Shown: piece after piece, positions 4,414-64,000 of the stretch
Layout: each line of letters starts with the position of its first letter
Position numbering within the stretch: the stretch's first letter is position 1
Assembly: GCA_003279605.1 (NCBI GenBank)
Contig: QCHF01000002.1
Span: 321,586-385,585 of the forward strand
Reading direction: 5' to 3'
DNA: 64,000 nucleotides
Source of the DNA: SAR86 cluster bacterium AG-390-O18
Lineage (GTDB): Bacteria; Pseudomonadota; Gammaproteobacteria; Magnimaribacterales; AG-339-G14
Notes under the pieces: generated by a model
What the model was told of the DNA's origin: nothing
Databases searched by the model: none
What the model saw: the letters and a program-made list of their open reading frames with translations, nothing else
Translations under genes and position numbers: made by a program

Positions 4414-4492
4414 GTTCTCCTAAAAAATAAGGAAATACATAATCCTTGTGGCCCGTCAGCATCTCTCTCCCCTGAAAACTGCTGACGGGTTT
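4414..4492 (+). ncRNA. Candidate sigmaE-dependent small RNA at the polA-engB (Spot 42/ErsA) locus
   Basis: Follows the sigmaE-like promoter; 5' UUCUCCU, A-rich tract, perfect 10-bp stem cccgtcagca/tgctgacggg (4452-4461/4480-4489) with an 18-nt C/U-rich loop, then a short U run. Ends approximate. Confidence 0.6.
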
Positions 4493-5099
4493 AAACTTCT
4501 AAAAGCAGTTTAATTTTATTTAACAAAGTTTCCAAACCTATTTTTTTGGTTGCAGAAAATACAAGTGAGTCGACAATGGCTGGGTAATCAGCCATTTTTT
4601 CCGAGACAACTTTAAGAGTATTTTGGGTTTCTTTATTATTAAGTTTATCGGCTTTGGTCAAAACCAAATGAATGGGTAAATTCAACGAATTGCAAAGACT
4701 TAAAAATTCCAAATCTTTATTTTGAAAAGGGTGACGCATGTCCATGATCAAAATCAAATCGCTTAGCGCTGCTCTTTTCTCCAAATAACTCATAATCAAT
4801 CTGGCCCAAGCATTTTGATCTTGCTTGCTGGCTTTTGCGTAACCAAAACCTGGCAGATCGACTATTTTTTTCGCTTCGTCATTCTCCAAATGAAAAAAAT
4901 TTATGGATTGGGTTCTCCCTGGGGTATTGGAGGTTTTGGCTAATTTTTTTTGATTAGCCAAAGCATTAATCAAAGTAGATTTTCCGGAATTTGATCTGCC
5001 GCAAAGAGCTATTTCATTACCTGAATCATGAGGGAAAAGCTTGCTTTCCGTCGCAGCACAAGCAAAGGTTAGAGGCAAAGGTTTTGACTTATAACTCAT
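4491..5099 (-). CDS. engB: Ribosome biogenesis GTP-binding protein EngB/YihA
   Basis: G1 GRSNSGKS, SNTPGRTQSINFF, G3 DLPGFG, G4 TKADK. Confidence 0.96.
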   Translation of the reverse strand: MSYKSKPLPLTFACAATESKLFPHDSGNEIALCGRSNSGKSTLINALANQKKLAKTSNTPGRTQSINFFHLENDEAKKIVDLPGFGYAKASKQDQNAWARLIMSYLEKRAALSDLILIMDMRHPFQNKDLEFLSLCNSLNLPIHLVLTKADKLNNKETQNTLKVVSEKMADYPAIVDSLVFSATKKIGLETLLNKIKLLLEV

Positions 5100-5172
5100 T
5101 CTTCTAAAATCAGGAAAAACAATATTCTATAGTATATAATTGCCAACCACTTAGCCCACTAATAAAGAATAA

Positions 5173-5814
5173 ATGATAAAAAAATTTTTACTTCTATCGT
5201 TTTTGGTAAGTTCCTTTAGCGTTTTTGCAGCTGCTGCTGGAGAAATGGCTGAGGCCAAACCAATGAAAAGAGGGGATGCAGAAAAGGGTTCAAAACTTGT
5301 TGGTACTTGTGTTGCTTGTCATGGCGTCGACGGAAATAGTGTTGTGGGCCAGTGGCCAACTTTAGCCGGCCAAAGAGAAAGTTATCTTTTTGAGCAACTT
5401 GAGCACATCAGAGATGAAGAGCGAGTTATCGCTGTTATGAAAGGCCTTTTGAATAATTATTCCGACAATGATTTGAGAGACATGGCGGCTTTTTACGCAA
5501 GCCAAAAAACCAAAGTCGGCCAAGCAGATGAAACAACTTTAGAATTAGGCCAACAAATTTATCGAGCTGGAAACTTGGCTTCAGGTGTACCGGCTTGTAC
5601 CGGTTGTCATGGGCCTGCAGGTAAAGGCTTAGAGTCAGCGCAATACCCAATGCTCGGCGGTCAAAAGGCCGAATACGTAGTCACAAGTTTAATTGCTTAT
5701 CAAACTGGAGAGAGAGCTATCGACGAACACGGCAAAATTATGCAAGGAATAGCTTCAAGACTTACCATCGAAGAGATTAGAGCGGTCGCCAATTATGTTT
5801 CAGGCCTTTACTAA
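5173..5814 (+). CDS. Diheme cytochrome c4
   Basis: Signal peptide; two CxxCH motifs (CVACH, CTGCH); conserved engB/c4/dsbA context. Confidence 0.92.
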   Translation: MIKKFLLLSFLVSSFSVFAAAAGEMAEAKPMKRGDAEKGSKLVGTCVACHGVDGNSVVGQWPTLAGQRESYLFEQLEHIRDEERVIAVMKGLLNNYSDNDLRDMAAFYASQKTKVGQADETTLELGQQIYRAGNLASGVPACTGCHGPAGKGLESAQYPMLGGQKAEYVVTSLIAYQTGERAIDEHGKIMQGIASRLTIEEIRAVANYVSGLY

Positions 5815-6418
5815 AAAACTTTTTCTAGTCTTTATCTTCTCAGTCAGTTCAGCATTGATTGCAGAAGATTATCAACCAGGTAAACATTACCAGATTTTAT
5901 CTGAACCCATCGCTACTAGAGACCCAAAAAAAATCGAAGTCATCGAATTCTTCTGGTTTGGGTGTGGACATTGTTACAGTTTAGAAAATCAACTTAATAG
6001 CTGGGAGAAGAAACTTCCTGTAGATGTAGATTTTTGGCGTTCACCTATTACTTGGAACGAAATGGCTAAAACGCATGCCAAATTATTTTATGCTTCGGAA
6101 TTTTTCAAAAATCCTGCAATCATTAGAGAAACTTTTTTATCTATTCATGCCAATCAACGCATGATGACTTCTGACAAAGAGTTACAACCTTTTTTTGCAA
6201 GCTTCGGCATTGCTGAAGATCAATACCAATCTTTATTTAATTCTTTTGCTATGCAGAACAAAATACGAAGAGCAGATACCTTTGGGCTCAAATATGAAAT
6301 CCGCGGAGTACCTGCTTTTATTGTCAACGGAAAATACAAAGTATCAGCTTCTCGACAAGTTGGAACTTCCGAACTTTTGGATGTTGTTGATTACCTTATT
6401 AACTTAGAAAGGAAATAA
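5795..6418 (+). CDS. dsbA: Thiol:disulfide interchange protein DsbA
   Basis: Signal peptide, EFFWFGCGHCY active site, GVPAFIVNGKY cis-Pro loop. Confidence 0.93.
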   Translation: MFQAFTKKLFLVFIFSVSSALIAEDYQPGKHYQILSEPIATRDPKKIEVIEFFWFGCGHCYSLENQLNSWEKKLPVDVDFWRSPITWNEMAKTHAKLFYASEFFKNPAIIRETFLSIHANQRMMTSDKELQPFFASFGIAEDQYQSLFNSFAMQNKIRRADTFGLKYEIRGVPAFIVNGKYKVSASRQVGTSELLDVVDYLINLERK

Positions 6419-9006: not shown

Positions 9007-10059
9007 ATGGATGCGGAAAAACTCAGTCAATTAACTCAAAAAGTCATTGGTGATGCAGCAGGAGCAGTAGGTTTACTGCTGGCATACATCGGAGACCAAT
9101 CAAAAGTTTATACAACAATGGACGAACTTGGCTCTTCAACTGTAAAAGAAATTGCAGATAAAGCAGGCCTTGATGAACGATACTTAAGAGAATTTCTCTC
9201 TTCCAATGCTGCTAATGGCTATGTAACTTATGAACCCGCAGAGGATAAATTTTCTCTTTCTCCAGAGCAAGCAGCTGTCTTTGCAAAAGATGGTGAGCCT
9301 ACTTGTTTGCAGGGTTACTTCCAAGCGATAGTTGGTCAATATGCAGAGCATGAAAAAGCCGTGGAAACTTTTCAATCAGGAAAAGGTAGACCATGGGGAG
9401 AACATCATCTGTGTTGTTTCTGTGGTACCGATAGATTTTTTAGACCAGGCTATGTTGGTAACTTAGTTAGTAATTGGATTCCGTCTTTATCTGGAGTTGA
9501 AGATCAATTAAAAGCTGGTGCCAAGGTAGCAGATATCGGTTGTGGTTTAGGCTCTACGACTATCATCATGGCTCAGACTTACCCCAATTCAACAATTCAT
9601 GGATACGATTTTCATGGTCCTTCCATTGAAGAGGCTAGTGCAAGAGCCAAGGAACTTGGACTAACCAACATTGAGTTTCACGTATCGGATGCCAGAGAGA
9701 TTCCAGATAATGGATATGACTTTGCCTGCATTTTTGATGCTCTTCATGACATGGGAGATCCTGTTGGTGTTGCCAATCATATTAAAAATGTTCTTTCCGA
9801 TGATGGTACATTCATGTTGGTCGAACCCGCTGCAGCAGATAATTTAGAAGGTAACTTGAATACTTTTGGCGGTTTAGCATATGGTTTTTCAACAATAGTT
9901 TGTGTTCCTACTTCTAGAGCTCAAGATGTGGGCCTTTGCTTGGGCGCACAGGCCGGTCCAAAAAGGCTTACGGATGTTTTGAATTCTGCAGGATTTCATC
10001 ACGTTAGAGAGTCAGCTCGAACTGGAACAAATATGGTTTTCGAGGTTAAGCAAGCTTAA
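9007..10059 (+). CDS. Class I SAM-dependent methyltransferase with N-terminal winged helix (Rv2258c-like)
   Basis: ADIGCGLG SAM motif, FDALHDMGDP, N-terminal GLDERYLREFL; start placed at ATG 9007 behind AGGAG. Confidence 0.8.
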   Translation: MDAEKLSQLTQKVIGDAAGAVGLLLAYIGDQSKVYTTMDELGSSTVKEIADKAGLDERYLREFLSSNAANGYVTYEPAEDKFSLSPEQAAVFAKDGEPTCLQGYFQAIVGQYAEHEKAVETFQSGKGRPWGEHHLCCFCGTDRFFRPGYVGNLVSNWIPSLSGVEDQLKAGAKVADIGCGLGSTTIIMAQTYPNSTIHGYDFHGPSIEEASARAKELGLTNIEFHVSDAREIPDNGYDFACIFDALHDMGDPVGVANHIKNVLSDDGTFMLVEPAAADNLEGNLNTFGGLAYGFSTIVCVPTSRAQDVGLCLGAQAGPKRLTDVLNSAGFHHVRESARTGTNMVFEVKQA

Positions 10060-11381
10060 TGCCAAACGAAAACAATTTTCTTGAAAAAGCTCTGCTTGTT
10101 CAAGTTGAAACTACAAAAGTCAGGCGTATTTTAAATTTTGAAAACTCTTTTGAAGAGTTTAAAGATTTAGCCCGTTCAGCAGGAGCTAACGTATTAGGTG
10201 AAATCAAAGGAAAGCAGGAACTTGCATCTCCCAGATATTTCATTCAAAAAGGGAAACTGGAAGAAATCAAGCAAGAAGTGCACAAAAACAAAATTAGTTT
10301 GGTTATTTTTAATCATGCTTTATCGCCATCACAAGAAAGAAATATCGAGCGGTATCTGAAAGCAAGGGTTTTGGATAGAACTGGATTGATTTTAGATATT
10401 TTTGCTAGACGTGCTTTTAGTCACATTGGAAAACTTCAAGTTGAGCTTGCTCAATTATCCCACTTATCTACCAGACTGATTAGAGGCTGGAGTCATTTAG
10501 AAAGACAAAAAGGAGGAATTGGCTTGCGAGGACCAGGAGAAACGCAACTGGAAACAGACAGAAGATTAATCGGTAATCGGATCAAAGCTCTTAAGAAGAA
10601 ACTTACAAAAAGTCACAATCAAAAATCTTTAAATAGATATGCAAGAAAAAAAGGCAAAAACAAAATCGTAGCATTAGTTGGCTATACGAATGCAGGTAAA
10701 ACAACTCTTTTTAATGCTTTGACGGGCGGCGTAGAATACAAAGCCGATCAGCTTTTTGCAACTCTAGATTCAGTAACTAGGAAAAACCTAAGTCCAGGTA
10801 GTAGAGCAATACTTTTTACCGATACTGTAGGTTTTATTTCAGAAATTCCTACAGAATTGATCGAATCCTTTAAAACCACACTGGACGATCTTAGATCTGC
10901 TGATTTGTTGATTCACTTAGTAGATGTGAATGACCCAGAAAAAGAGCTAAAACAAAAAGAGGTTATAAAAATTTTGAAGGATTTAAACTTAAAAGATATT
11001 CCTCAACTTTTAGTTAATAACAAGATAGATAATCTTTCTGCCGCGAAACAACAAGAATTGGAGTTTCAAAATCCCAAGGATCTTTATGTTTCTGCAGAAA
11101 AAAATATTGGGATCGATTCCTTGAAAGAAAAAATAATAGAACAAACCAGTAATGGGCTCTTCAAAGGCTGGGTTTCAGTTGATCATAGGGCTTCTGCGAT
11201 ACGCGCGAAACTCTATGAAGAAGGATGCGTTAGAGATGAGATTGGTAAAGATACAGAATGGCATCTAAAGTTAAATGTCGGCAATGATTTTCTTACAGAG
11301 TCTATTAATGCATCGGAATTAAAAATCTTATTCAATGAAGAACAAGAAAGCTTTGAAATTGGTGAGCCAGGTAGAACCTGA
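10059..11381 (+). CDS. hflX: GTPase HflX
   Basis: LDIFARRA, GIGLRGPGETQLETDRR, G1 GYTNAGKT, DQLFATLD, DTVGFI, NKID. Confidence 0.97.
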   Translation: MPNENNFLEKALLVQVETTKVRRILNFENSFEEFKDLARSAGANVLGEIKGKQELASPRYFIQKGKLEEIKQEVHKNKISLVIFNHALSPSQERNIERYLKARVLDRTGLILDIFARRAFSHIGKLQVELAQLSHLSTRLIRGWSHLERQKGGIGLRGPGETQLETDRRLIGNRIKALKKKLTKSHNQKSLNRYARKKGKNKIVALVGYTNAGKTTLFNALTGGVEYKADQLFATLDSVTRKNLSPGSRAILFTDTVGFISEIPTELIESFKTTLDDLRSADLLIHLVDVNDPEKELKQKEVIKILKDLNLKDIPQLLVNNKIDNLSAAKQQELEFQNPKDLYVSAEKNIGIDSLKEKIIEQTSNGLFKGWVSVDHRASAIRAKLYEEGCVRDEIGKDTEWHLKLNVGNDFLTESINASELKILFNEEQESFEIGEPGRT

Positions 11382-11436
11382 ATCTGCGACCTTTTGCTCC
11401 TGAGGCAAATGTTCTGATCCGCTCAACTACTGGCTC
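11360..11436 (-). tRNA. Atypical tRNA or tRNA-like gene: anticodon CAG on a short-variable-arm, tRNA-Arg(CCG)-like body
   Basis: GAGCCAG-TA-GTTG AGCGGATCA GAAC-A-TTTGC CTCAGGA GCAAA-AGGTC-GCAGA TTCAGGT TCTAC-CTGGCTC-A-CCA. Perfect 7-bp acceptor and 5-bp anticodon stems, encoded CCA; deviations in D and T arms. Function uncertain. Confidence 0.8.
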
Positions 11437-11508
11437 AATAGTTAAAATATTTATAAATAAGCTTAAACTTTTCTTCTAGTTAGAGATAGATATAGTTAGG
11501 TAGGGGTC

Positions 11509-11514
11509 TATAAT
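11509..11514 (+). promoter_or_regulatory. Putative -10 element (TATAAT) 6 nt before pseudoazurin ATG
   Basis: gtcTATAATcgactcATG. Confidence 0.5.
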
Positions 11515-11520
11515 CGACTC

Positions 11521-12132
11521 ATGAAAAAATTAACAGTTGCTTTAATTTCGCTTCTTTTATCAAATCTAGCAGTCTCTGCTGATATGCGTGAAGAGGCTAT
11601 TCTTGATCGCGTTTCTTCTGTTGCCAGTGTTTGTCTAAAAACTGACGACTGTGGCATAGAATCATCTGGACCTGGCTATAAAGTCGCCTTGAATAATAGT
11701 ATGGCAGCTGAACCTGTTGCCGCTTCCAATAAAGTAAAACTGTCTGAAGGTAGCGTCCATGAAGTTAAAATGCTCAATGCTGGAGCAGACGGTACTATGG
11801 TTTTCGAGCCTCCTGTTTTAAAAGTATCAGTTGGAGATACAATAAATTTTGTTCTCGTGGACCCTATGCACAACTCAGCTTCTTTTCCTAACATGATTCC
11901 ATCCAATGCAGAAAGCTGGAATGGCACAATCAATGAAAGTATCAGTGTTACTTTAGATGTTGAAGGAGTATATGTTTACAATTGTACACCTCATGCAATG
12001 ATGGCAATGGTAGGAGTTATTCAAGTAGGTGAAGCAGTTAATTTGGATGAGGTAAAATCTGCTGCGAGTCAGATAAAATCTACTTTTGTCATGAATCAAG
12101 AGAGGTTAGACGACTACTTATCAAGATTGTAA
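11521..12132 (+). CDS. Pseudoazurin-type blue copper protein with N-terminal extension
   Basis: Signal peptide; HEVKMLN...MVFEP; Cu ligands MHN and CTPHAMMAM; extra N-terminal ILDRVSSVASVCLKTDDC segment. Confidence 0.88.
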   Translation: MKKLTVALISLLLSNLAVSADMREEAILDRVSSVASVCLKTDDCGIESSGPGYKVALNNSMAAEPVAASNKVKLSEGSVHEVKMLNAGADGTMVFEPPVLKVSVGDTINFVLVDPMHNSASFPNMIPSNAESWNGTINESISVTLDVEGVYVYNCTPHAMMAMVGVIQVGEAVNLDEVKSAASQIKSTFVMNQERLDDYLSRL

Positions 12133-12137
12133 TTATT

Positions 12138-12449
12138 TTGTATAAATTATTTCTTCCTTTTCTAATATTCTTTTTCATCTCTACTCTGATTTTCTCTGAA
12201 GAAAAAAAATCAAGAGATGGTAAGACCGTTTACGATGCAGCATGTGCCATTTGTCACCAAAATGGTTTGGCCGGCGCCCCAATTTTTGGGGATAAATCTT
12301 CATGGGGATATAGAGTCAATAAAAGTCTGGATGAGTTAACTTATAGTGTTAAAAATGGTCTTAGAGGAATGCCTGCAATGGGTTTATGCATGAATTGTTC
12401 TGAGCAGGAGCTCGAAATGGCAGTTAGCTATATCTTAGACTCTTTATAA
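12138..12449 (+). CDS. Cytochrome c5 family monoheme protein
   Basis: GKTVY...CAICH, GAPIFGDKSSW, GMPAMGLCMNCS (c5 disulfide pair); TTG start with signal-like leader. Confidence 0.88.
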   Translation: MYKLFLPFLIFFFISTLIFSEEKKSRDGKTVYDAACAICHQNGLAGAPIFGDKSSWGYRVNKSLDELTYSVKNGLRGMPAMGLCMNCSEQELEMAVSYILDSL

Positions 12450-33965: not shown

Positions 33966-36112
<2,147 letters not shown>

Positions 36113-59278: not shown

Positions 59279-60426
59279 AAAAAGTTCTATTAATAATTTA
59301 TTTCTTATCTACTGTAGCTTTCTCACAAACGTTAATTCCAAAATTACCGCAAATTACCGCTTCAAGCTTTTTACTTATTGACACTGAGACAAATAAAATA
59401 ATTGCTCAACAAAATCCAGAAGCTTCTACAGGGTTAGCGAGCATCACGAAAATCATGACGAGTTACATAGTAGCGGACTATTTAAAAAAAGGATTTTTAA
59501 ACATTAAAGACTCCACAACAGTAAGTGAAAAATGTTGGCGCATGGAAGGCTCAAGGATGTTCATCCAAGAAGGTAAAAAGGTTTTGATAGAAGATTTAAT
59601 GCGCGGCATGATTATCCAATCTGGAAATGATGCAGCCTGTGCCTTAGCTGAACACATTGCAGGAACCCAAGAAGATTTTGCGAGCCTTATGAATGACTAT
59701 GCTCAAAGAATGGAGTTAAAAAATACGAATTTTACCAATCCAACTGGCTTACCAAATGTTAATCACTATTCAACGGCTGAAGATATAGCAAAATTAAGTA
59801 TATTTTTAATCAACGATTTCCCTGACGAATATTCAATCTATAGAGAGAAAGAATTTACCTACAACGACATAAGGCAATTAAATAGAAATAGCTTGCTTTG
59901 GCAAGATGACTCAATAGATGGTATTAAAACTGGCCATACAAGGGCGTCAGGATATTGCTTGGTGGCCTCATCTAAAAGATCAGACATGAGGCTAATTTCG
60001 ATAGTTCTTAATAGTGCTTCTGAAAAATCAAGACTTCAAGACACCAGAAGATTACTGGACTATGGTTTCAAGTACTATCAAACTAAAAAAATAATAGCTA
60101 AATATCAACCAATATCTATCGTTGATATCTGGGGCGGAATGGAAGATAAATTGGAACTTGGCCCTAAAAAAGATATCTTCATAACATTAACTAAACCTAC
60201 TTTTGATAGGCTTACTATTGAGGCATCAAAAAATTTGGGTGTAAAAGCACCTGTGAGGAAGGATTCAGTTATAGACAGATTAGATATCAAAGTTGATGGC
60301 GAAACTATTCAATCTGTTGATTTGGTTGCTGTAAATAATGTGCAAAGAAAAGGAATTATCATAGCGACTTTAGAGTCTTTGATGTTCTATGTTTACAGTT
60401 TCTTCATGCAAGATGAAATAAATTAA
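59275..60426 (+). CDS. dacA: D-alanyl-D-alanine carboxypeptidase (PBP5/6)
   Basis: ASITKIM (SxxK), SGNDA, GIKTGHT. Confidence 0.92.
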   Translation: MKKVLLIIYFLSTVAFSQTLIPKLPQITASSFLLIDTETNKIIAQQNPEASTGLASITKIMTSYIVADYLKKGFLNIKDSTTVSEKCWRMEGSRMFIQEGKKVLIEDLMRGMIIQSGNDAACALAEHIAGTQEDFASLMNDYAQRMELKNTNFTNPTGLPNVNHYSTAEDIAKLSIFLINDFPDEYSIYREKEFTYNDIRQLNRNSLLWQDDSIDGIKTGHTRASGYCLVASSKRSDMRLISIVLNSASEKSRLQDTRRLLDYGFKYYQTKKIIAKYQPISIVDIWGGMEDKLELGPKKDIFITLTKPTFDRLTIEASKNLGVKAPVRKDSVIDRLDIKVDGETIQSVDLVAVNNVQRKGIIIATLESLMFYVYSFFMQDEIN

Positions 60427-61259
60427 TGTCAATTTGTTTTTTAAACAACAAATTTATAGATATTCAAGAAGCAAAAATTTCACCATTGGATAGAGGCTTT
60501 CTTTTTGGAGATGCTATTTATGAAGTAATCATTGCAGTAAATAAAAAACCCTTTGAACTTGATGCTCATTTAACTAGATTAAAAAAAAATATATCTTCCC
60601 TGAAGTATTCATTATCAGATCAAGTTGATTTAGAAGAAATAATCCTAGAAGTAATTTCTAGAAATAAATTTTTGAAACAGGTAATTTATGTTCAAATCTC
60701 TAGAGGCACAGATACTGTAAGAGACCATATTCCAAGTAACGATTTAACACCAACTATATTTGTATCTTCTCATGAATTGAAAACAGAGTTCTCTACAAGT
60801 TCTGGTGAGAAAGCAATTTTATTAGAAGATTTTAGGTGGAGAAAAAGTCAGATAAAGGCAACCTCTTTACTTGCCAATGTCATTTATAGATCTAAGGCCA
60901 AGCATCAAGAAGTTTTTGAGACCATTCTTTTTGAAAATGGGTTTATTACTGAAGGCGCAGTAAGTAACGTTTTTTGCTGTATTGATAATAAAATTGTTAC
61001 GCCGCCTCTAACAGAAAATATCCTTCCTGGAGTAACAAGAAAAGTAATCTTAGAGATAATTCAAGATACCTCCTTAGAATGTGAGGAAACAAAAATATCT
61101 GTTGATTCTTTTCTTTTAGCAAAAGAAATTTGGGTTACGAATTCAACCAAAGGAATCATTCCAATCATTGAACTTGATGGCAAAAAAATAGGGTCCGGAT
61201 TACCGGGTGAAAAATATCTTCAAATTTCTAAAGCTTTTATAAATAAACTTTCTGGTTAG
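60426..61259 (+). CDS. Class IV aminotransferase, probable D-amino-acid transaminase
   Basis: DRGFLFGDAIYEV, YVQISRG, IKATSLL (PLP Lys), ITEG..SN, LPGVTR. Confidence 0.85.
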   Translation: MSICFLNNKFIDIQEAKISPLDRGFLFGDAIYEVIIAVNKKPFELDAHLTRLKKNISSLKYSLSDQVDLEEIILEVISRNKFLKQVIYVQISRGTDTVRDHIPSNDLTPTIFVSSHELKTEFSTSSGEKAILLEDFRWRKSQIKATSLLANVIYRSKAKHQEVFETILFENGFITEGAVSNVFCCIDNKIVTPPLTENILPGVTRKVILEIIQDTSLECEETKISVDSFLLAKEIWVTNSTKGIIPIIELDGKKIGSGLPGEKYLQISKAFINKLSG

Positions 61260-62167
61260 ATATACCCAAAATTAACAATAATTTTCCTTAATTCTATCCA
61301 GAATTCAGCCTTACCTGTTTTAAAGTCTTTATCAAGATCCGCAATTTTTTTTCTTAAACTTTTTATTTGTGGTGTCGATATTTTCTTTGCTTTTATTTTA
61401 AGCTTTGAAAGATAATCTCTTGGAACGCCTTTTAGAAAAAAATTTGGATTCTTTTTATATTGCTCTAATCTATCAAGTTGTTGGTGTATGACAGCAATTA
61501 TACCTGGCTCGTTTTCTTTATTTAATTTCATGATTTCTAAAATTTCTAAAGATTTTGAAACTTGGTTAGATAAACAACTATTGATTAAGCTAAAGACATG
61601 ATATTCAGAGCTGTCTCTTATAAATTCATAATCTGTATTTTTTTGATCTAAACATTTTAGAAATTTTAGCTCTTGATAAGCAGACAATAAATTTTCTTCG
61701 TTTCTAGAGGCAATTAAATTAACGCCTTCTTCACTCAAAAGTAGATCCATATTTTTCGCTTCGTTCTTGATCCAATCTTTGAATTGATTTGAATAGACTG
61801 GTTGAAGTTCAGAGATTTCAAGGTATTTAGATATTTTTTTAAACCAAGCAGATGTTTTTATCTTTTTATTTAATGATGAAATAACAATTATACGATCTGG
61901 GTTATCCTCTCCTAATAAGCTCAAAAAAAAATCTTGATCATCTTTTAGGATGCTTTTTTCTTGAAGACGCAGATCAATTATTTCTTTTTCGCTAAATAAA
62001 CTTCCTTGTTGATTTTCAATATTTATTTCTTCTTTTATCCCTTTTTTGTAAAAGAAAATTTTTCTACTTTGAAAGCCATCTTTTTTAAGATTTAAAATAA
62101 ATTCGTCTCTCAGCTTAGAATTAAGAAACTCATCATTGCTTAGAATTAATTTATGCTGAATCCGCAT
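61256..62167 (-). CDS. holA: DNA polymerase III delta subunit (very divergent)
   Basis: SLFSEK, ENLLSA.QEL, VFSL pattern; leuS-lptE-holA synteny. Confidence 0.75.
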   Translation of the reverse strand: MRIQHKLILSNDEFLNSKLRDEFILNLKKDGFQSRKIFFYKKGIKEEINIENQQGSLFSEKEIIDLRLQEKSILKDDQDFFLSLLGEDNPDRIIVISSLNKKIKTSAWFKKISKYLEISELQPVYSNQFKDWIKNEAKNMDLLLSEEGVNLIASRNEENLLSAYQELKFLKCLDQKNTDYEFIRDSSEYHVFSLINSCLSNQVSKSLEILEIMKLNKENEPGIIAVIHQQLDRLEQYKKNPNFFLKGVPRDYLSKLKIKAKKISTPQIKSLRKKIADLDKDFKTGKAEFWIELRKIIVNFGYI

Positions 62168-62681
62168 TGCTTTTTTCTAAAAAGAAAATCAATAATTCAT
62201 TTACTGCCTCGCTAAAGAAATCTAATTTAATTTCATCTGCCTGCTTTTCATTTGAAAGAATACTTTCGGTATCGTAGGAAAAATCCTCTGAAGTAAAGAT
62301 TGGTATCTCATGGACGGTATTAGTATTTCTATCAAAAATACTTAACTTAACTTGGTAATCTAGACTAACTACAGCAGGGAAAAAATTTTCGTCGGTAGCC
62401 TCTAAAAATTTACCCAGTCTATGGTCACTGATTTCAATTACAAAATCTGCAGCATCTTTAGTTTCTGATAGATTCGCGTTCATTAAGAAAAAATTCTTTT
62501 TTAATTCTTGAACAAGGGAAAAATTCAGAGGGTTTTTTTGAAACTCAAAAAAAATTGCAATCTTTTTTTCTGAATAGTTTAGTGGTTTAAAAGCACAAGC
62601 AGTAATGAGTAATACTAATGAGAAATATAAACAATTTTTTTTTAAATTAAATAACAAAATTAACGAGTTTTTTTGGAACAT
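62151..62681 (-). CDS. lptE: LPS assembly lipoprotein LptE
   Basis: Lipobox ITAC followed by AFKP; between leuS and holA; start uncertain. Confidence 0.75.
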
Positions 62682-63999
62682 ATATTGTTTTTTTTATATT
62701 TTCTTTTTTTAAATATTTTTTCACATTTTCTAATTCTTTGCTTTCTTCAATAATAGCTTCTTCACTACTTGATATACCTACAACAATCTTTCCTCGTAAT
62801 TTACCATTAATCTGAATTGCAATTGTCATTTCATTTCCTTCTAATTGATCTACATTGAAGGTAGGCCAAGTTTCATTATGGATAGGAGATTTTTTACCAA
62901 ATGCTTCCCATAATTCATGACAGACATGAGGAATGATTGGCGACAGCATAATTAAACTTTTTTGAATTATTTCTCTAAAAACCTCATTACTTTCTTTTGT
63001 AACTGAACTTTTCAACATTGCTTTGGGAATGGCATTCAATAATTCCATAATCGCTGCAATTGCAGTATTGAATTGATTTTTATCTTCAAAGTCTGCAGAA
63101 ACTTTTTTTATCGTTTGATTTAATTTAATTTTGATATCATTTAAATCCAATACTTGCTCTTTATTATCTATAGTTTGAATGAAAAAGCTTTGTGATAAAG
63201 ACCAAAGTTTTTTTATGAATTTATGAGAGCCGTTAACTCCCGAATCTGACCATTCCAAAGATTGTTCAGGCGGTGCAGCAAACATTGAAAACAATCTAAC
63301 GGTATCGGCACCATATTTTTCGATCAACTCATTAGGATTTACAGTATTGCCTTTAGATTTTGACATCTTTGATCCATCCTTCAGAACCATACCTTGGCAC
63401 AATAATTTTTTAAACGGCTCTCTTACATTAATTAATGATAAGTCATTCATGGCTTTACAAAAAAAACGTGAATATAGAAGGTGAAGAATTGCATGCTCTA
63501 TTCCACCTATGTATTGATCTACTGGCATCCAATAATCTGCTTCAGCATCAAGCATTGATTCTGAAGATTTATAAGAGGCAAATCTTGCAAAATACCAAGA
63601 TGATTCAACAAAAGTATCAAAAGTATCTTTCTCTTTAGAATAATTTATTCCATTCAATTCGATTTTTTCCTTAGCAATCTCTTCTTCACTTAGATCATTG
63701 AAAGGTAAAATTTCATTTTCGCTATCTGAGATAAACATGGGTATCGGAGCTCCCCAAGATCTTTGTCTTGAAACTCCCCAATTTCTTAAACGAAAATTTA
63801 TTTGTTCTGTTCCTTTGAAACCAAAATTATTTTCTTCAGTTAATATTGAAAAGGCTTCTTCAAAAGAAAGTCCATTTAATTTATCAGAATTAATTAAAAT
63901 TCCTTTTTCTTCAATGGCACTTTCAATTTTGTCTAATTTTCCTCTTCCATCATCTATAACTTGAATGATTTCAATCTGCTCAGCTTGAGCGAACTCAAA
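62647..63999 (-). CDS. leuS: Leucine--tRNA ligase (C-terminal part; 5' end beyond window)
   Basis: Frame open to the window edge by hand translation; [57 protein letters not shown]. Confidence 0.97.
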
Positions 64000-64000
64000 A

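Follow-up and report, generated by a model that had tools for sequence, protein, structure and literature searches.

In a 64-kb stretch of DNA from a SAR86 cluster bacterium (the whole of which we call the window), the only tRNA gene carries a leucine anticodon, CAG, on an arginine-type body, and it is very probably a young pseudogene of tRNA-Arg(CCG) that is drifting neutrally and whose CAG anticodon is incidental. The sequence is orthologous to a tRNA-Arg(CCG) gene overlapping the 3' end of hflX in related genomes, it differs from the intact allele of its nearest relatives at seven sites, these changes have accumulated at a neutral rate, and the same gene has decayed in parallel elsewhere in SAR86. 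From these patterns we infer that the window copy has lost both aminoacylation and function.

Structure and ancestry of the tRNA-like sequence

ARAGORN called a single tRNA in the window, at 11360..11436 on the minus strand, and assigned it to tRNA-Leu with anticodon CAG. Rfam model RF00005 matched at 11363..11436 on the same strand with 51.9 bits (gathering score, 29), and this score, the ARAGORN call, and the cloverleaf place the sequence in the tRNA family. The 77-nt RNA, GAGCCAGUAGUUGAGCGGAUCAGAACAUUUGCCUCAGGAGCAAAAGGUCGCAGAUUCAGGUUCUACCUGGCUCACCA, has a fully paired acceptor stem (7 bp) and anticodon stem (5 bp) and an encoded CCA; its anticodon loop is CUCAGGA, with position 11401 as the middle anticodon base, its variable loop is AGGUC (5 nt), and its D loop is AGCGGAUCA. 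G18, G19, A20, and A73 are retained. The copy also has mismatches at G13/G22 and C50/A64, an A53-U61 pair, and G58. All of these details (stems, CCA, loops, mismatches, the A53-U61 pair, G58, and position 11401) had been listed in a preliminary description made from the letters of the DNA alone and are confirmed by the sequence, and the leucine (CAG) isotype named there is the one that ARAGORN returned; the minus strand and the overlap with the end of hflX were absent from that description.

Bacterial tRNA-Leu belongs to class II and is marked by a long variable arm, which the 5-nt variable loop of this copy does not provide. Under E. coli identity rules ArgRS recognizes C35 and A20 as its determinants; the copy has kept A20, and C35 is gone together with the CCG anticodon of a tRNA-Arg(CCG). 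At the positions where a functional elongator tRNA has G53, A58, and C61 it has A53, G58, and U61, and its D and T stems are interrupted by the G13/G22 and C50/A64 mismatches. Energies computed with ViennaRNA put the cloverleaf of the window copy at -14.1 kcal/mol versus -24.6 kcal/mol for the canonical allele described below; the window cloverleaf lies 11 kcal/mol above the minimum free energy of its own sequence (-25.1 kcal/mol), compared with 2.6 kcal/mol for the canonical cloverleaf, and the minimum-energy fold predicted for the window sequence has a shape other than a cloverleaf.

We gathered related loci by way of HflX, with one genome per species, and obtained 19 SAR86 loci. The 15 closest HflX loci, at 79 to 97% identity, all belong to SAR86-cluster or unclassified Gammaproteobacteria represented by single-cell or metagenome-assembled genomes. 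ARAGORN finds tRNA-Arg(CCG) at exactly the corresponding position, where it likewise runs into the 3' end of hflX, in 11 of the 19 SAR86 loci; at this site elsewhere it calls tRNA-Met(CAT) in one locus (L010) and makes no call in L003, L004, L011, and L015. The nearest relatives of the window by HflX (L001, L002, and L012; 95 to 97% identity) have one canonical allele in common, GAGCCAGTAGTTCAGCGGATCAGAACGTTTGCCTCCGGAGCAAAAGGTCGCAGGTTCAAGTCCTGCCTGGCTCACCA, which is also present in metagenome contigs L021 and L022. The Rfam score is 70.8 bits for the intact ortholog of L012 and 69.6 bits for those of L005 and L013, compared with 51.9 bits for the window copy, and CAG occurs at this locus in no relative. 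Because the sequence at 11360-11436 is orthologous to a conserved tRNA gene, its tRNA shape is not a chance match. Judged by this comparison of position and descent, the window copy is a tRNA-Arg(CCG) gene in which C35A is one of seven changes; the preliminary description had proposed precisely an Arg(CCG) gene with C35A, and this is borne out by the CCG anticodon that the nearest relatives have in their orthologous copies.

The seven substitutions relative to the canonical allele are distributed over much of the molecule (all coordinates refer to the minus strand). C13G (11424) abolishes C13-G22 pairing in the D stem, and G26A lies at 11410. C35A (11401) turns the anticodon from CCG to CAG and removes the ArgRS determinant C35. 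G53A (11383) replaces the near-invariant G53 and is non-coding, two bases beyond the hflX stop. The remaining three, A58G (11378), C61U (11375; AGG to AGA), and G64A (11372), are synonymous third-position changes in hflX. Five of the seven run in the direction from G/C to A/T.

Apart from the tRNA, the nearest relative of the window differs from gene to gene when positions 1 to 21000 are compared with loci L001 to L015: genes at 4491-6418 have 94 to 98% identity to L006 and L014 and 80 to 93% to L001 to L003, and HflX has 96 to 97% identity to L001 to L003 and 89% to L006. These shifts suggest a recombination mosaic among SAR86 populations.

The hflX overlap, substitution rate, and decay in other lineages

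The hflX gene, encoding a ribosome-associated GTPase, occupies 10059..11381 on the plus strand (an open reading frame with an NCBIfam TIGR03156 GTP_HflX match of 436 bits and the corresponding Pfam domains). It lies tail to tail with the tRNA gene, so that its last 22 nt (11360-11381) run antisense to the 3' portion of the tRNA and its stop codon TGA (11379-11381) complements U55-C56-A57 of the T loop. Wherever the tRNA is intact, hflX ends in the same seven codons down to the last nucleotide (GGT GAG CCA GGC AGG ACT TGA), whereas the last four codons of the window gene are GGT AGA ACC TGA in place of GGC AGG ACT TGA. The only changes within the overlap are A58G, C61U, and G64A, all of them silent in the third codon position (GGC AGG ACT to GGT AGA ACC). 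Where decay is more advanced, the HflX tail itself is altered, to GKPVST in L004, VERSRT in L009, and GELGRT in L011; since the tail is free to vary where the tRNA has decayed, it was the tRNA and not HflX that had constrained the tail in the intact lineages.

The overlap also bears on the A53-U61 pair, which looks like a compensatory double change and so like a sign of structural selection. That reading is unnecessary, because C61U is silent in hflX and accounts for the pair with no selection on RNA structure. By our own estimate the chance that two of seven random hits fall on one pair is ~0.1, and a change from G-C to A-U is favored by AT-biased transitions.

We polarized substitutions with L001, L002, and L003. 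On the window branch, 6 of 109 four-fold sites of hflX are derived (5.5%), compared with 7 of 77 positions in the tRNA (9.1%); the excess in the tRNA has a binomial p of 0.13, with just seven substitutions entering the test. The intact copies of L001, L002, and L012 have changed at 0 of 77 positions, and the tRNA gene is nearly invariant even among lineages whose four-fold sites are 63 to 71% diverged from those of the window. The purifying selection expected of a functional elongator tRNA is accordingly absent from the window copy (7/77 against 6/109, with 0/77 in its sisters). Its pairwise divergence of 9.1% falls within the range of the adjacent genes and intergenic spacer (2 to 14%). The window copy is thus certainly evolving no slower than neutral sequence, which fits neutral drift.

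The gene has deteriorated in several other SAR86 lineages, each in its own way. The L009 copy (53.1 bits with Rfam) is altered in the 3' strand of the acceptor stem, the L010 copy (40.2 bits) has a scrambled anticodon arm that reads CAT, and the L003 copy (29.8 bits) is altered in the 5' strand of the acceptor stem and in the anticodon stem while retaining the CCG anticodon. Copies in L004 and L011 are unrecognizable and fall under the Rfam threshold, and L015 has no copy. None of the seven changes of the window is found in the decayed copies of the other lineages. On a neighbor-joining tree of hflX the decayed copies are scattered among intact ones: the window is sister to the intact L001, L003 is sister to the intact L002 and L012, L009 and L010 are sisters that have G49U in common, and L004 and L011 sit on separate branches. 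Because decayed copies are interspersed with intact ones on this tree and the changes of the window are unshared, the tRNA-Arg(CCG) gene has been inactivated independently at least five times in SAR86. The window copy thus has what is expected of a pseudogene, namely, hits at functional positions at the neutral rate together with unrelated decay or loss in relatives. As an observation on its own, the L010 sequence (5291-5367, minus strand, in single-cell genome AG-325-A20), called tRNA-Met(CAT) by ARAGORN, has many differences in the anticodon arm and is unchanged at both ends; heavy local decay could have produced this arm, as could replacement of the patch by recombination.

Directly upstream of the tRNA lies a conserved AT-rich intergenic stretch at 11437..11473, which reads GAAAAGTTTAAGCTTATTTATAAATATTTTAACTATT on the minus strand and contains the motif GAAAAGTTTAAGCTTATTTATAAATATTTTAA. 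The 24 nt adjoining the tRNA gene are the same in the window and in relatives with an intact tRNA, and given this identity the window copy may still be transcribed. The AT-rich motif is kept in all loci, including L011 and L015, where the tRNA is unrecognizable or absent; since it persists without a recognizable tRNA, it probably serves another or an additional purpose beyond tRNA transcription. The stretch may be a tRNA promoter or a signal for the neighboring gene on the plus strand. A promoter scan found no sigma-70 consensus on the minus strand, and a terminator scan of 11200-11650 found no intrinsic terminator. Beyond the tRNA, at 11521-12449 on the plus strand, are genes for a cupredoxin (plastocyanin/azurin family) and a small c-type cytochrome; cupredoxin orthologs are present in L001 to L004, L010, L011, and L015 and missing from the group comprising L005 to L009, L013, and L014.

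Decoding of CUG and CGG

The window has a G+C content of ~36%, and its 60 long open reading frames (20,314 codons) contain 12 CGG codons (~6 per 10,000) and 129 CTG codons. Composition is uneven in two places: katG, encoding a catalase-peroxidase (33966-36098, plus strand; NCBIfam, 1148 bits), is the one part of the window that is rich in G+C (0.44 compared with ~0.36) and by this measure may have been acquired horizontally; at the end of the window (60001-64000) G+C is ~0.30, compared with ~0.36 elsewhere.

We aligned 20 window genes codon by codon against orthologous genes from as many as 15 SAR86 loci. CTG codons of the window are matched by leucine in 97.7% of ortholog residues, the same as for CTA (97.5%), and CGG codons by arginine in 96.6%. 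Neither codon aligns with a new amino acid, and these percentages rule out reassignment of CUG or CGG; within the aligned genes the meaning of both codons is unchanged. That CTG is read as leucine had been proposed from hflX and is upheld here over the larger gene set. CGG is also not depleted: across 5765 shared codon columns the window has 7 CGG codons, the highest number among 11 genomes, and three of the 7 are gains specific to the window, including hflX codon 98, ~1 kb from the tRNA pseudogene.

Because CGG is still used in polA, parC, and hflX of the window, some other tRNA must read it. ARAGORN found no further tRNA in the 64-kb window or in the fetched loci, and the putative substitute, which would lie outside the window, could be a tRNA-Arg(UCG), another copy with CCG, or the remaining CGN tRNA. 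A literature search returned nothing specific on tRNA or codon peculiarities of SAR86, a group mentioned in neither the Codetta (PMC8629427) nor the KACI paper on screens of genetic codes.

Interpretation and comparison with known systems

The most probable history of the locus is as follows. The copy descends from the single-copy tRNA-Arg(CCG) gene that lies tail to tail with hflX in SAR86 gammaproteobacteria. CGG is very rare in this streamlined, AT-rich lineage, and selection on a tRNA dedicated to it is therefore weak. On the window branch function was probably lost, after which substitutions, mostly from G/C to A/T, accumulated at the neutral rate, and one of them happened to convert the CCG anticodon to CAG. 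The 3' part of the gene now varies solely at sites that are silent in the hflX frame. The RNA, if transcribed, would be poorly folded by prediction and would lack C35, so that a decoding role would not be expected, and CGG would be read by another arginine tRNA encoded outside the window. Some observations run counter to this account: the Rfam score is well over threshold; the stems, CCA, G18, G19, A20, and A73 are kept; G53A and C61U jointly preserve a base pair; the 24 nt upstream are unchanged; the window shows no depletion of CGG; only seven substitutions underlie the rate test; and L020, the contig described next, possibly derives from the same reads as the window.

The preliminary description had offered four fates for the gene (a decaying pseudogene, a repurposed RNA, a short-arm tRNA-Leu, and a mistranslating tRNA), of which the decaying pseudogene alone agrees with the evidence. 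It had named CCG in relatives and random decay across relatives as signs against the more exciting readings, and both were observed, the decay taking a different course from one lineage to another. It is extremely unlikely that the allele arose from an intact tRNA-Arg(CCG) gene through an error of sequencing, amplification, or assembly. An exact look-up of the HflX protein recovered one contig (L020), from the Logan assembly of run SRR7040692, which has 0 differences from the window over 2136 nt including the tRNA and whose reads may be the window's own. A scan of the metagenome collection with a degenerate pattern, in which five of the seven variable sites were given as N, matched two contigs (L021 and L022), both with the canonical CCG and with flanks the same as those of the window; neither the CAG allele nor intermediates were found in that collection. 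An artefact would agree with an allele seen in the window and one Logan contig alone, perhaps from the same run, and with metagenome matches that read CCG only. It would also have to account for seven separate point differences within 77 nt, set between flanks that differ from those of the nearest relatives by an unremarkable 4 to 7%, and for a spectrum that is AT-biased and consists mostly of transitions, as real evolution predicts; because the second assembler produced an identical sequence, the seven changes are not a product of assembly. An error confined to 11401 is ruled out by the seven differences and the identical Logan assembly. As far as sequence collections tell, the CAG allele looks private or rare.

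Equally in need of weighing is a repurposed tRNA-like RNA, whose shape would be kept as an antisense or 3'-end element of hflX or as a signal for processing or termination that serves the convergent genes, a reading that we regard as very unlikely. The 22-nt overlap with the 3' end of hflX, the intact acceptor and anticodon stems, and the lack of an intrinsic terminator in 11200-11650, for which a tRNA-shaped element could substitute as an end signal, would be in keeping with it. However, the predicted cloverleaf is ~10 kcal/mol weaker than the canonical one and far from the minimum free energy, covariation is limited to one pair that the silent hflX change accounts for, the overlapped hflX tail also changes in decayed lineages, and L004, L011, and L015 retain hflX and its neighbors with the copy unrecognizable or absent. 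Highly improbable, too, is a functional tRNA that captures CUG, either as a short-arm species charged by LeuRS or as one mischarged with Leu/Arg ambiguity. ARAGORN and Rfam still recognize the cloverleaf, A73, the encoded CCA, and the upstream region are unchanged, and the A53-U61 pair is maintained, yet the anticodon change is accompanied by six more substitutions, at or above the neutral rate, that strike invariant T-loop positions and two stems. The allele is unseen in the metagenome scan and CAG in every relative, where decay takes other directions; CTG corresponds to leucine as often as CTA does; the body is class I, against class II for bacterial tRNA-Leu; and the C35 that ArgRS needs under E. 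coli rules is gone. A more speculative version, to which we assign hardly any probability, is that the mutated gene is transcribed and weakly aminoacylated as a class-I-bodied CUG reader charged with leucine or another amino acid, or, more mildly, that a CGN tRNA reads CGG by non-standard wobble. Low-level aminoacylation would be conceivable in the former case because A73, the acceptor and anticodon stems, and the encoded CCA are kept, and such a reader would show a tRNA caught in nature as it moves from one codon box to another through one anticodon mutation. In the milder case, SAR86 would repeatedly be discarding its sole cognate CGG reader with CGG still meaning arginine in essential genes.

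On the pseudogene reading, a leucine anticodon on an arginine body is the look of a tRNA gene soon after selection stops, and the locus is an ordinary pseudogene rather than a new decoding device. Gene finders will mislabel 11360-11436 as tRNA-Leu, and a pseudogene flag is due whenever genomes of this SAR86 lineage are annotated. The modestly interesting pattern is that an abundant free-living ocean bacterium repeatedly loses its CGG tRNA while using CGG, which is the starting condition assumed by codon-capture models and by the known CGG reassignments.

Among known tRNAs, the window copy can be set beside the canonical gammaproteobacterial tRNA-Arg(CCG), the argX type of E. coli, which it resembles in its 77-nt length, A20, AGGUC, and A73 and, in the ancestral allele, the CU-CCG-GA loop; it differs from that type in lacking C35, G53, A58, C61, and the 13-22 and 50-64 pairs. 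Anticodon-shifted or mistranslating tRNAs have an anticodon mutated to the box of another amino acid on a body that is kept, and where they are functional, purifying selection maintains the body and the members of a clade keep the allele. The window copy is like them in that one anticodon base change puts an Arg-type body into a leucine codon box, and unlike the functional examples in that its body drifts neutrally and its allele is private.

Loss of tRNA-Arg(CCG) has a precedent in Blattabacterium BCpu, from Cryptocercus punctulatus, an AT-rich reduced genome in which the gene is lost and CGG usage is unchanged (PMC3296467). Both cases indicate that a reduced genome of low G+C can do without its tRNA dedicated to the rare CGG codon, with no visible change in CGG usage (PMC3296467); in contrast to BCpu, the SAR86 host is free-living marine plankton, its gene is in mid-decay rather than deleted, and losses have occurred at least five times in one clade. 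CGG is unassigned in Mycoplasma capricolum (Oba 1991) and reassigned in Clostridia and Absconditabacteria, as discussed in PMC8629427 (Shulgina and Eddy 2021). The scenario put forward is that low G+C makes CGG rare, after which tRNA(CCG) is lost or takes on a new identity (PMC8629427; also KACI), and in a clade apparently without a CGG-decoding tRNA the codon falls below 1 per 10,000 (PMC8629427). SAR86 shares the beginning of this path, in that low G+C makes CGG rare and weakens selection on tRNA(CCG), whereas CGG in the window corresponds to arginine in 96.6% of ortholog residues, stands at ~6 per 10,000, and occurs in polA, parC, and hflX, and the window shows neither a new meaning of CGG nor a tRNA(CCG) with a new identity. 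Set against these systems, the window locus is an early and ordinary stage of tRNA(CCG) loss, in which the tRNA is dying, the codon still means arginine, and the identity of the tRNA is not a new one.
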